A stretch of DNA of 64,000 bases from Helicobacter kayseriensis (GTDB lineage: Bacteria; Campylobacterota; Campylobacteria; Campylobacterales; Helicobacteraceae), in assembly GCF_021300655.1 (NCBI RefSeq), contig NZ_JAJTNB010000001.1, positions 133,770 through 197,769 of the forward strand. The letters are read 5' to 3'. Made by a program: the position numbers and the translations under genes. A model generated the notes under the pieces. That model worked only from the letters and a program-made list of their open reading frames with translations, searched no databases and had not been told where the DNA came from. This document shows positions 52,808-55,660 of this stretch, piece after piece (positions within the stretch are counted from its first letter, which is position 1; each line of letters opens with the position of its first letter).

Positions 52808-54394
52808 ATGATTGATCTTTATTCAAAAAATCTAAAACGCTCGGATTTGCTTCATTTTCAAAATACCTGCGATGAATTAATTCATAAATCCATTACTATC
52901 AATATTCATCGTAATCATGCATTTGAGCCTGTTGGAAGCATCATCAATGCATTTTTATCCCAAAGTGGTTTAATCGCTAAATTTCAAATTGGACCATATG
53001 ATGATTCTTTGAGCTTTGATAATCTCCAAAAAAGTCATCTAGAAATCATCTGGGTTGATCTTTCTCGCTACAAAAACAATCCCTTAGAACACATATCAAA
53101 ACAAATCAAGTATCTCAAAACACTTACCACATCCCCAATTCTTCCTATTTTTATGGATATCCACTGCCGATTTAATCTTTCTCATTTGCAAGAAGATAAT
53201 GTTCTTTTTCTCTCTTCATTTATTCAACAAGAAGATTTAGATGACAAAAAGTCAAGCATTACTGGCACAAGACTTGGGAATAAGGCTTGTATCAAAATTG
53301 CACAATTTTTAGGACTTAGAGAAATCCCCTCATTGCTTCTTCCTTCACTCAAAGCAATTGTTCTTGATTTGGACAATACTCTTTATAGTGGAATACTTGG
53401 CGAAGATGGGATTGATAATCTTGTTTTAACTCAAGAACATAAAAAACTACAAGAAAAAATCTTAGATTATAAAAACAAAGGCTTTTTATTGGCTCTTGCC
53501 TCAAAAAATGAAGAGCAGCATGTTCAAGAAATGTTTCATAAACGTAAAGATTTTCCACTCCAATGGAAAGATTTCGATACAAAAGAAGTCAACTGGAATC
53601 CAAAAAGTCAAAATATTCAAAAGATTGCACAATTTTTCAATTTTGGACTTGATTCTCTCCTCTTTATTGATGACAATATCGCAGAAATTGAATCTGTCAA
53701 ATCCCTTAATATCAAAACAATTCTTGCCATTTCTCCAACAAAAGTGCTAGAAACACTAGAGCTCTTTCCTCAAATGCACAAAAAAGCAATTACCAATGAA
53801 GATATACTGCGTTCAGCAGACATTCAAGCAAATCAATTAAGACAACAACTCAGCAATCTCTCTCAAAAAGAATACTTTCAAAATTTGCAAATTTCACTTA
53901 TTTTCTCTATCGACAATCTTAACAACATTCAACGCATCACAGAACTTCTTAATAAAACCAATCAATTCATCTCCGGTTATACTCGCCCTACGCTAAATCA
54001 AGTTGAGGAATGGTTTAGAAATCCACATCTTTCAATTGCTACTATTGCAATGAGTGACAAGCTAAGTGATAGTGGAATTATTGCAATCTTTATAGGCGAA
54101 AAGATCAAGCATCAACTCGCATTGCGCGATCTTTGTATTAGCTGCAGAGCACTAGGAAGAAAACTCGAAGAAATCATGCTTTTCAAAGCTATTTCTCTTC
54201 TTAAAGAGAAGCTAGGAATTCTCTCACCGACTACAGATATCTACTTCAAAAAAGGAGAAAGAAATTCGCCCTTTTTGGATTTTCTGCAAAAACTTCCTCA
54301 ACACAGTGCCAGCCAAAATATATATACTACTATCGATGAAATAGTCAATACTGATGGTTTAAATATCAAGGAGGAGAAAAATGAAAGATTTTGA
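52808..54394 (+). CDS. FkbH-like HAD-IIIC family protein (glyceryl-ACP forming enzyme family)
   Basis: LKAIVLDLDNTLYSGILGEDGIDNLVLTQEHKKLQEKILDYKNKGFLLALASKNEE is the HAD-IIIC/FkbH domain signature (DxDxT...SKN). 528 aa with an N-terminal extension. Confidence 0.65.
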   Translation: MIDLYSKNLKRSDLLHFQNTCDELIHKSITINIHRNHAFEPVGSIINAFLSQSGLIAKFQIGPYDDSLSFDNLQKSHLEIIWVDLSRYKNNPLEHISKQIKYLKTLTTSPILPIFMDIHCRFNLSHLQEDNVLFLSSFIQQEDLDDKKSSITGTRLGNKACIKIAQFLGLREIPSLLLPSLKAIVLDLDNTLYSGILGEDGIDNLVLTQEHKKLQEKILDYKNKGFLLALASKNEEQHVQEMFHKRKDFPLQWKDFDTKEVNWNPKSQNIQKIAQFFNFGLDSLLFIDDNIAEIESVKSLNIKTILAISPTKVLETLELFPQMHKKAITNEDILRSADIQANQLRQQLSNLSQKEYFQNLQISLIFSIDNLNNIQRITELLNKTNQFISGYTRPTLNQVEEWFRNPHLSIATIAMSDKLSDSGIIAIFIGEKIKHQLALRDLCISCRALGRKLEEIMLFKAISLLKEKLGILSPTTDIYFKKGERNSPFLDFLQKLPQHSASQNIYTTIDEIVNTDGLNIKEEKNERF

Positions 54395-55049
54395 TTCTTT
54401 TATGCAGTCCCAATACAATGAGGGATTTTATTCCCACAAAGAGCTTCAACAAATAGGATTTGCATCTATAGGGAAAAACGTTCTACTCTCAAGACTCGCC
54501 AAAATCTATGGCGCTTCAAAAATTTCCCTTGGAAACAATGTCAGAATTGATGACTTTGTAATCTTAAGCGGAAAGATTGAAATTGGGAATTTTGTGCACA
54601 TCGGAGCCTTTTCATCTATAACTGGTGGAAATTCTGGAGTTATTGTCGGAGATTTTTGCAACATGAGCTCTTATTGCAAAATTTTTGCTGTAAGCGATAA
54701 TTTTTTTGAAGGATACCTTGCTGGCTCATGCATACCCGCTAACTTTAGAAAACTCAGAGATGCTCAAGTCGTCTTGGAAAGATTCAATAACTTTGGAAGC
54801 CATAGCCTAGCTCTTCCAGAGAGTTATTTCCCAACTGGATCAAGTCTTGGCCCAATGAGTGTCAATCTTGGAAAAAAATTTGAAGAGTGGGGTTATTATC
54901 TTGGGAATCCGGCAAGAAAATTATCTCTTATCGATCAAAATCAAGTCCTAAAACTTGAAAAGGAATTTCTATCTTCCATAAAAGAGACAATGGGGGGGGG
55001 GGATAAACAATACCAAACAATAACTGACATCAAAAGGATTGCATCATGA
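54381..55049 (+). CDS. Hexapeptide-repeat (LbH) acyl/acetyltransferase, paralogue 1, with poly-G(11) near the 3' end
   Basis: IGNNVRIDDFVILSGKIEIGNFVHIGAFSSITGG is the left-handed beta-helix repeat. The tract at 54992-55002 encodes MGGGD. Confidence 0.75.
   Translation: MKDFDSFMQSQYNEGFYSHKELQQIGFASIGKNVLLSRLAKIYGASKISLGNNVRIDDFVILSGKIEIGNFVHIGAFSSITGGNSGVIVGDFCNMSSYCKIFAVSDNFFEGYLAGSCIPANFRKLRDAQVVLERFNNFGSHSLALPESYFPTGSSLGPMSVNLGKKFEEWGYYLGNPARKLSLIDQNQVLKLEKEFLSSIKETMGGGDKQYQTITDIKRIAS
54992..55002. repeat. Poly-G(11) in LbH acyltransferase paralogue 1
   Basis: Counted directly, in the context KEFLSSIKETM-Gn. Confidence 0.9.
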
Positions 55050-55660
55050 ATCACCTCATGCAATCCCAATACAATGAAGGATTTTATTCATATGAAGAAC
55101 TTCAAAAAATAGGATTTGCTTCTGTAGGGAAAAATGTCCTACTCTCAAGGTTAGCTAGAATCTATGGTGCTTCAAAAATTTCTATTGGGAACAATGTCAG
55201 AATTGATGACTTTGTAATTTTAAGTGGAAAGATTAAAATTGGGAATTTTGTGCACATCGGAGCCTTTTCATCCATCACCGGTGGAGATTCTGGAGTTACT
55301 ATTGGAGATTTTTGCGGGATGAGTAGTCATGTTAAGGTCCTTGCTATAAGCGATGATTATAGTGGAGAAACCCTTACTAATCCCTGCATACCCAATCAAT
55401 ACAAAAACATTACAAAAAAACAAATTATCATTGAAAAGCATTGCATTGTTGGATGTGGCTCAACAATTCTCCCCAACGCCTTTTTAAGCGAAGGAAGCTC
55501 AATAGGAGCAATGAGTCTCATCGTTCGAAAAACAAAACCTTGGGGAGTCTATTTTGGAATTCCAGCAAAAAGAATCAAGGAAAGAAAAAAAGATCTACTT
55601 AAACTTGAAAAAGAATTTTTATCTTCTATAAAAGAGACAATGGGGGGGGGGATAAACTAG
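55046..55660 (+). CDS. Hexapeptide-repeat (LbH) acyl/acetyltransferase, paralogue 2, with poly-G(10) at the 3' end
   Basis: The N-terminal ~90 aa are near-identical to paralogue 1. It ends KEFLSSIKETMGGGIN*, and it overlaps the paralogue 1 stop (ATGA). Confidence 0.75.
   Translation: MNHLMQSQYNEGFYSYEELQKIGFASVGKNVLLSRLARIYGASKISIGNNVRIDDFVILSGKIKIGNFVHIGAFSSITGGDSGVTIGDFCGMSSHVKVLAISDDYSGETLTNPCIPNQYKNITKKQIIIEKHCIVGCGSTILPNAFLSEGSSIGAMSLIVRKTKPWGVYFGIPAKRIKERKKDLLKLEKEFLSSIKETMGGGIN
55642..55651. repeat. Poly-G(10) in LbH acyltransferase paralogue 2
   Basis: Counted directly, in the same flanking context as the tract in paralogue 1. Confidence 0.9.

Follow-up and report, generated by a model that had tools for sequence, protein, structure and literature searches.

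What can a mutable repeat at the very end of a gene be for, when a change in its length leaves the encoded enzyme whole? This question is raised by two tandem genes for left-handed beta-helix (LbH) acyltransferases in Helicobacter kayseriensis, here called gene 1 and gene 2, which lie in a glycan locus upstream of a formyltransferase gene and each close with a poly-G tract. They were analysed within a 64,000-nucleotide (nt) stretch of the genome with 36% GC (the window; all coordinates are positions within it). A reading made from the letters of this DNA, without database searches (the sequence-only reading), had described tandem paralogues with G11 and G10 in the same context and an ATGA overlap between them, and had proposed that the repeats toggle short tails and possibly translational coupling. 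The observation itself is confirmed, and its interpretation is partly supported. The answer favoured here, to which about an even chance is given on the strength of sequence comparison, is that each tract may select the frame in which ribosomes exit its gene, and that only the phase with the longest tail would bring terminating ribosomes to the start of the next gene.

Enzyme ends and the three exit frames

Both genes match Pfam Hexapep, and their products are exact matches to H. kayseriensis acyltransferases (gene 1 is 100% identical to the acyltransferase P0001). Together with the match of gene 2 to AntD and the beta-helix fold of gene 1, this leads to the prediction that both are AntD-like LbH sugar N-acyltransferases. 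AntD is the dTDP-4-amino-4,6-dideoxyglucose N-acyltransferase of Bacillus cereus (PDB 3vbi-3vbp; Kubiak & Holden 2012), and the entry 3vbn is named as AntD elsewhere (PMC6031040). Gene 2 aligns with it (3vbi/3vbn, E 8e-61) over residues 9-195, through ...LEKEFLSSI, and both proteins consist of a left-handed beta-helix that ends in a C-terminal alpha-helix. The solved AntD chain (3vbi) stops 2 residues past the equivalent of ...LEKEFLSSI, the helix before the tract, which is where the G run begins; unlike the Helicobacter enzymes, AntD has neither poly-Gly nor a tail. The AlphaFold 2 model of gene 1 consists of a beta-helix followed by a helix at residues 186-199. Its mean predicted local distance difference test (pLDDT) score is 88 up to this terminal helix, stays above 85 until residue 201, and falls below 50 over residues 202-222, so that the tail is disordered. 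Homologues without a tract terminate at ...LEKEFLC. The tract thus comes so late in the open reading frame (ORF) that a frameshift cannot abolish the protein. Both enzymes are complete before it, which supports the sequence-only reading in its claim that neither enzyme is switched ON or OFF by its repeat.

What a change in tract length does alter, by calculation, is the tail of the product. The two genes share the pre-tail peptide ...LKLEKEFLSSIKETMGGG, and both tracts are embedded in the same context of ~55 nt. In the assembled G11 phase, gene 1 terminates as GGGDKQYQTITDIKRIAS, and its stop (TGA, 55047-55049) overlaps the ATG of gene 2 (55046-55048) in the ATGA at 55046-55049, an overlap of the kind expected of a coupled pair. 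At G10 gene 1 would read GGGINNTKQ and stop at the TAA at 55021-55023. This lies 26 nt ahead of the G11-phase stop, rather than the 15 nt or so of the sequence-only reading, and 22 nt from the gene 2 ATG. In gene 2 the present G10 leads to the TAG at 55658-55660. At G11 gene 2 would instead read GGGDKLDLTLLLGGLCA, with the tail DKLDLTLLLGGLCA, up to the TAA at 55693-55695. Only in this phase does its stop sit on the GTG of the formyltransferase (55688), as GTGCGTAA at 55688-55695. In the third phase (G9/G12) both genes meet an immediate TAA, at 55004-55006 in gene 1 and at 55653-55655 in gene 2. After the glycines, the calculated tails are 15, 6 and 0-1 amino acids (aa) long in gene 1, and 14, 2 and 0-1 aa in gene 2. 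The earlier arithmetic for the tails of two phases was correct; the third phase and the overlap between gene 2 and the formyltransferase had been missed. A junction of the same form, ATGCGTAG, is found ahead of the formyltransferase in the locus L014, whose formyltransferase homologue also matches the N-terminus MRKIKIGYFADGIW. No phase of either tract enters the downstream gene in frame, and gene fusion was rejected on this ground.

Features of the gene pair and its junctions (positions in the window; SD, Shine-Dalgarno sequence)
Feature	Position	Strand	Basis
Gene 1: LbH (hexapeptide) acyltransferase, 'type A' core, 222 aa in the G11 phase	54381-55049	+	ORF list, Pfam Hexapep
Shared 3' module: last ~50 nt of coding sequence, tract and ATAAAC	54943-55008	+	84-91% identical to 55593-55657 of gene 2 (pairwise DNA alignment)
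Poly-G tract 1: G11, codes GGG, now in the long frame	54992-55002	+	sequence, frame calculation
Spacer / alternative tails after tract 1	55003-55049	+	frame calculation
Gene 2 initiation region: SD AAGGA (55034-55038), hairpin, ATG, overlapping TGA	55034-55066	+	fold
Gene 2: AntD-like LbH N-acyltransferase (by similarity), 'type B' core, 204 aa in the G10 phase	55046-55660	+	Pfam Hexapep, PDB match
Poly-G tract 2: G10, now in a short frame (GGGIN, then stop)	55642-55651	+	sequence, frame calculation
Spacer / alternative tails after tract 2	55652-55695	+	frame calculation
Formyltransferase, GTG start, SD AGGGGGA (55677-55683)	55688-56590	+	Pfam Formyl_trans_N/C

Junctions, tails and tract lengths in other Helicobacter

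The evidence for a role of the junction comes from relatives. For each tract the stops of the three frames were computed against the position of the next start, and under a strict definition one frame had to be open across the whole spacer, with its stop no more than 12 nt from the first base of that start. This architecture is seen in 28 of the 31 Helicobacter junctions that follow a 3'-terminal poly-G, whose spacers measure 28-293 nt (28-282 nt where the frame is open throughout), against 6.9 expected from composition-preserving shuffles. Their spacers fall into 29 groups without detectable mutual similarity, and with one representative of each the count is 26 of 29 (6.5 expected); the nominal P values of this census assume independence. 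In 20 of the 24 spacers of at least 70 nt, both remaining frames meet a stop no further than 30 nt past the tract, where 8.5 are expected. The long frame is open in 21 of 24 spacers of 100-280 nt, where neutral decay would have left 2-4. At the LbH junctions, 13 of 14 have one frame open to a stop on or beside the next start, in the form ATGA, GTGA, TAATG, TGATG or TAAATG. The same design is found behind unrelated upstream genes: LbH and PglD-like transferases, a 74-codon ORF resembling an acyl carrier protein (ACP), and larger proteins. The variety of these genes, together with tails that are not conserved, argues for a function at the level of the junction. The design, a long frame onto the next start and two frames closed at once, is by this comparison maintained while spacer and tail drift freely.

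The position of the tract is conserved and the sequence of the tract region is not. GGG(G) past residue 170, with unrelated tails behind it, is present in 44 of the 120 best homologues. In the genomes that represent species, a G9-G14 closes 16 LbH genes, which come from about 13 Helicobacter genomes or lineages. A terminal poly-G run is absent from the non-Helicobacter loci (0/21). The tail peptides range from 10 to 78 aa and are unconserved in length and sequence, even between orthologous gene pairs, and the long ones nearly always finish in Ala or Ala-Ser. Tract lengths fixed across isolates, which the sequence-only reading had named as a refutation, are not what orthologous tracts show: ten metagenome contigs with identical flanks have G12, G13 or G14, and all three tail classes of one gene occur within clusters of 90% identity, as in EQFEISQGGG(G) followed by DKLASIFIPSSSRLSA, by IS and a stop, or by an immediate stop.

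At the junction of gene 1 and gene 2, the start of the downstream gene is also folded. A hairpin pairs GGAUUGCA (55036-55043) with UGCAAUCC (55059-55066), enclosing the gene 2 ATG and the overlapping TGA, and its stem takes in the GGA of the gene 2 Shine-Dalgarno sequence (SD). Its predicted energy is -11.7 kcal/mol (z -2.97), and 1 of 200 shuffles was as stable. The same hairpin precedes tract-following LbH genes in H. anseris (L002; -8.8 kcal/mol, z -1.8) and in a metagenomic lineage with a PglD-like gene upstream (L042; -16.2 kcal/mol, z -4.3), and it is weak in H. pametensis (z -0.5). Its outermost pair varies between G-C, G-U and A-U. It was not found where no tract precedes the LbH start, namely at gene 1 of the window and at the first of the LbH genes in H. 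pametensis. An effect of tract length on RNA accessibility was rejected: the predicted unpaired probability of SD and start is unchanged from G9 to G13 at either junction.

In other species, many of the spacers are 100-280 nt long, C-rich and G-poor, with up to 44-45% C and 12-14% G, and 14 of 25 are in the top 5% of their locus for C-G skew. Three of them (L049 4103-4303 and 4912-5134, and L051 4111-4330) measure 200-225 nt, with 37-45% C and 12-15% G (locus average 31% and 21%). Their long frames are open and encode tails of 68-75 aa, rich in Pro, His and Thr, which vary in length, always in frame, from one strain to another. In one lineage, three strains keep the frame of 68-75 codons open to the PglD-like start, and the spacer is 67-71% identical, against 92% for the flanking coding sequences. 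The L049 and L051 spacers look like a Rho-loading site that would be translated in one phase only. Long C-rich spacers of this kind would suit Rho loading upon an early stop of translation. This does not apply to the window, where a Rho-utilisation (rut) site was rejected: its spacers are 43 and 36 nt long (the criterion being ~70 nt or more), with a C-G skew at the 28th and 81st percentiles of the locus.

The two genes of the window are themselves a mosaic. Of the residues, the first ~75 are 89% identical and the rest 41%; in the DNA, identity runs at 82-93% for the initial ~260 nt and drops to 42-64% in the middle. Concerted evolution of LbH paralogues is seen in the window (54381-54640 against 55046-55300) and in the pairs P0002/P0043, P0006/P0042 and P0020/P0048. 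Type A and type B paralogues of one genome are 85-97% identical over the N-terminal ~75 residues, against only 68-84% between orthologues; for the C-terminal parts the figures are 41-44% within a genome and 51-78% between orthologues. The 5' halves of the paralogues appear to have been homogenised repeatedly by gene conversion. Two modules in L009 (4571-5020 and 6876-7325), each made up of a tract, a spacer of 129 nt and a PglD-like gene's 5' half, share 85-100% identity. The genes upstream of them, an LbH gene and a 73-codon ORF, are unrelated, and identity sets in precisely with the poly-G; in L008 and L028 it sets in only with the start codon. The tracts may mark borders of gene conversion.

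A proposed coupling gate and its alternatives

The mechanism proposed for the window is as follows. Both poly-G runs would be hypermutable, their length shifting through slipped-strand mispairing. Each tract is placed just past the last structural element of an AntD-like enzyme, because of which the enzyme would be made in every phase, and tract length would pick the reading frame in which ribosomes exit the gene. In the G11 (or 8 or 14) phase, translation would cross the 36-43-nt spacer and terminate on the next start codon, at ATGA between gene 1 and gene 2 and at GTGCGTAA between gene 2 and the formyltransferase; in the other two phases, ribosomes would halt 4-21 nt past the tract. The long-phase ribosome would promote downstream initiation through termination-reinitiation and, at the first junction, would also melt the hairpin that holds the SD and start of gene 2. 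A ribosome ending at 55047-55049 would have unwound the 5' arm of this hairpin, whereas one that stopped at 55006 or 55023 would leave the arm paired or open it only marginally. Each tract would therefore act as a stochastic dimmer of the downstream glycan-modification gene or genes and not of its own gene, with gene 2 dimmed by tract 1, and the formyltransferase, perhaps along with genes coupled to it further downstream, by tract 2. In the assembled state, tract 1 would be in the coupled phase and tract 2 in an uncoupled one. The sequences show the tracts and frames, the completeness of the enzymes, the disordered tail, the overlaps of stop and start, the hairpin, the conserved architecture and the varying length of orthologous tracts; switching in H. 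kayseriensis, phase-dependence of downstream translation and the glycan phenotype are inferred.

More broadly, and with somewhat less than even confidence, the comparison across species can be taken to suggest that the 3'-terminal poly-G in glycan loci of enterohepatic Helicobacter is a general, selected intercistronic switch, which would phase-vary the downstream gene or genes by coupling while leaving its own gene on. One of the three exit frames would cross a fast-evolving, often C-rich spacer, and Rho polarity would be possible in the long ones.

Several points weigh against a gate formed by translational coupling. The architecture of the window's two junctions has a probability of about 0.39 each of arising by chance, given their short spacers (0.76-0.88 in a looser test of the open frame only). 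Since the two are not significant on their own, the argument is carried by the comparative set, which suggests such a gate and in which some downstream starts of the 31 junctions were picked by eye. The coupling that the sequence-only reading had held possible gains support from the 28 of 31 junctions and from the hairpin at 55036-55066. Gene 2 (AAGGA) and the formyltransferase (AGGGGGA) have SDs of their own, so that coupling may only modulate their expression and not gate it. The short-phase stops are 22-40 nt away from the next start, and some reinitiation is conceivable across such a distance. At the junction of gene 2 and the formyltransferase there is no stabilised structure (z +1.1), and the long frame may be no more than an ancestral ORF in an operon whose genes are tightly packed. 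Finally, H. kayseriensis is represented by one genome, from whose assembly the tract lengths of the window are taken. The exact proteins were found only in the NCBI H. kayseriensis record, and a pattern scan of metagenomes with the shared tract context returned one unrelated G8 match only.

An alternative that is regarded as unlikely is that the tails themselves are what is switched. Under the model of Snyder et al. (2010), the tract would give the acyltransferase no tail, a short one or one of 14-15 aa, with consequences for stability (for example, long tails ending in ...A or ...AS as a protease-recognition end), trimer assembly, partner binding or activity, and the overlap of stop and start would be incidental packing. 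All three tail classes do exist in nature, and the Ala or Ala-Ser that ends nearly every long tail is in keeping with an effect on stability. Such ends resemble non-polar C-terminal degrons. The concept has also been published for glycan-cluster genes of H. canadensis (PMC2823697). However, tails of 10-78 aa that are conserved neither in length nor in sequence, predicted to be disordered and lying outside the AntD fold, are hard to reconcile with it; the same spacer design recurs behind unrelated proteins, and a long frame that ends on the next start in 28 of 31 junctions is not what it predicts. Somewhat less likely still is the possibility that the tracts have no selected role and are mutational by-products or recombination landmarks, with an ancestral long frame and a 3' slippage that is nearly harmless and tolerated. 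In its favour, the window tracts lie inside a module of ~60 nt that is 84-91% identical between the paralogues, the two L009 modules reach an identity of 85-100% exactly from the tract on, each genome has homogenised N-terminal halves in its paralogues, and the window junctions alone are not significant. Yet the position and the design of one long and two short frames persist across 29 dissimilar spacer groups, neutral decay should have shut the long frame in the 100-280-nt spacers (2-4 of 24 expected open, 21 observed), and the stops in the two other frames cluster directly after the tract.

Control through RNA in a length-dependent manner is considered improbable. It would involve a G-repeat bound by a C/U-rich small RNA (sRNA), as with RepG, or by a C-rich spacer in cis, or an early termination that exposes a C-rich Rho-loading site and so brings transcriptional polarity on the genes downstream. 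RepG does target a G-repeat of variable length in the leader of tlpB-hp0102 of H. pylori with graded effects (PMC8295292), 14 of 25 spacers in other species are in the top 5% for C-G skew with C reaching 44-45%, and phase variation mediated by Rho is known for invertible elements (PMC12360218). Nevertheless, the window spacers are just 36-43 nt long and not C-skewed, RepG homologues are reported only in gastric Helicobacter, no Rfam family is matched in the window, and a mechanism of pure length leaves the frame-specific architecture unexplained. The Rho version is compatible with coupling through the long frame, as an added layer in other species, and does not exclude it.

The glycan locus, related systems and significance

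The genes discussed belong to a densely packed operon on the + strand, with overlaps of 4-22 nt. It comprises a 4,6-dehydratase, a TylF-like methyltransferase, a DegT aminotransferase, short-chain dehydrogenases/reductases (SDRs), an AMP-binding ligase, an ACP-sized ORF, a glyoxalase/epimerase-like protein, an FkbH-domain protein (NCBIfam E 2e-97), the two LbH genes, the formyltransferase, a GNAT protein, an ATP-grasp enzyme, a HAD hydrolase, NeuB, a PIG-L deacetylase, a GFO/IDH/MocA oxidoreductase and a CMP-sugar cytidylyltransferase. The NCBIfam formyltransferase-family matches of the formyltransferase (ArnA, fmt and others) are all under the curated score cut-offs. The locus is a nonulosonic-acid pathway (of the pseudaminic or legionaminic type) with added acyl-modification genes, and islands of this sort are where Campylobacter and Helicobacter carry contingency tracts. 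This context points to nonulosonic-acid derivatives, and acyl groups derived from ACP and FkbH, for the LbH enzymes. No promoter-like or terminator-like site separates the discussed genes or spans the tracts. A role in promoter spacing was rejected, there being no sigma-70-like site over either tract and no intergenic terminator.

Between 41.6 and 56.9 kb, that is, within 15 kb, there are eight G/C runs of at least 9, and such clustering in a window of 36% GC marks a typical contingency locus rather than a chance pattern. The glycan locus holds five tracts of this length in addition to tracts 1 and 2. The ORF at 52401-52793 (+), which is glyoxalase/methylmalonyl-CoA-epimerase-like, has a G11 at 52704-52714, around residue 102, and in the assembled phase it continues into an unrelated tail. 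With G10 the family-typical C-terminus ...NYLLIELVETYD would be restored, with a stop overlapping the FkbH-like start (ATGATTGA at 52808), so that the assembled gene is apparently phase-OFF. At 46045-46057 a C13 (G13 on the - strand) causes a classical frameshift in the middle of a family-2 glycosyltransferase gene, leaving an N-terminal ORF of 94 aa (46039-46323, Pfam Glycos_transf_2) and, in another frame, a continuation of 277 codons; the assembly has this gene phase-OFF. On the same strand, a C13 at 43494-43506 in the ORF 43200-44177 is read as an in-frame G13 near residue 228 of a 325-aa CTP_transf_3 protein. Its long frame of 97 codons ends in a 4-nt overlap with the next gene (42493-43203), and the remaining frames run for just 1 and 7 codons, so that it shares the design of one long and two very short frames. 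A C9 at 56896-56904 (+) codes in frame for PPP in the middle of the GNAT ORF (56574-57281) directly downstream of the formyltransferase. The gene is currently ON, and the other frames stop within 6-18 codons, which makes this a conventional ON/OFF tract. A C11 at 41631-41641 lies in the 29-nt gap between the convergent ClpB-like (39064-41628, +) and HMGL-like (41658-42581, -) genes, beginning 3 nt past the ClpB-like stop. Apart from the tracts, there is an ORF at 51808-52125 (+), flanked by the AMP-binding ligase and the ACP-sized ORF, whose match to a short-chain dehydrogenase is confined to the C-terminal third (model positions 155-235). It is probably a gene remnant, as there is no upstream room for the rest.

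The use of simple sequence repeats (SSRs) at gene ends, which the sequence-only reading called unusual, is known since the work of Snyder et al. (2010; BMC Genomics 11:67; PMC2823697), who described eight 3'-end poly-G tracts of G10-G14 in H. canadensis. Five of them are in or near the surface-glycan cluster, including an SDR and a formyltransferase, and most of the eight have one long and two short tails, such as 4/1/18, 17/4/2 or 5/1/50 aa (PMC2823697). The authors named this C-terminal phase variation and read it as a switching of protein sequence or as fusion (PMC2823697); the concept has also been applied to Neisseria (PMC5320596). As in H. canadensis, the protein here would still be made in all phases. 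In contrast to the present case, coupling is not mentioned in that paper (the stem 'coupl' is absent) and LbH acyltransferases are not among its eight genes; what goes beyond it are the long frame onto the next start in 28 of 31 junctions and, at one junction, a hairpin that sequesters the SD. The toggling of tails thus belongs to a phenomenon already known, and it is the coupling gate that would extend it.

In Campylobacter jejuni, cj0045 at G11 would extend to overlap the start of cj0044c (Lango-Scholey et al. 2016, footnote; PMC4965091), and a poly-G lies 37 bp upstream of the start of cj1321, an LbH transferase of the flagellin glycosylation island (PMC4965091, PMC5135748). For these tracts of another genus, the ON states are treated as arbitrary and no mechanism is proposed, and the cj1321 tract is classed as intergenic. 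Classical coupling also involves a stop/start overlap (ATGA or TAATG) and an SD masked by structure, as seen here in the overlaps and in the hairpin between gene 1 and gene 2. The difference is that coupling would here be conditional on the length of a hypermutable repeat, and so heritable, reversible and stochastic. RepG/tlpB-hp0102 of H. pylori (Pernitzsch et al. 2021; PMC8295292) is similar in having a variable poly-G upstream of a glycan gene without simple ON/OFF control, and the length of the repeat tunes the co-transcribed downstream gene (PMC8295292). There, however, the repeat is in the 5' untranslated region, the regulator is an sRNA acting in trans and the response is graded by length, whereas here the repeat is within the 3' end of the ORF and has frame-specific features. 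For Rho, a 2025 review lists phase variation only for invertible elements (PMC12360218). The pair lex2A/lex2B of H. influenzae was set aside as a precedent, since only the repeat in lex2A and the transferase lex2B were confirmed. No paper proposing SSR-gated translational coupling was found, within an incomplete coverage of the literature.

Ever since the H. canadensis catalogue of 2010 it has been an open question what repeats at the 3' end do in contingency loci, and phase-variation assays usually code them as arbitrary or free of effect. If coupling through the long frame holds, analyses of glycan phasotypes in Helicobacter and Campylobacter assign such switches to the wrong gene, and the gating of the next gene would be a fourth mode of SSR phase variation beside promoter spacing, 5'-ORF frameshift and C-terminal switching. 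It would also give an annotation rule from sequence alone: an open frame onto the next start, two frames stopped, and optionally an SD hairpin or a C-rich spacer. In the window, the type B acyltransferase and the block from the formyltransferase onward would be dimmed independently, and operons of this kind could make combinatorial glycan variants in which the upstream enzyme is never lost.

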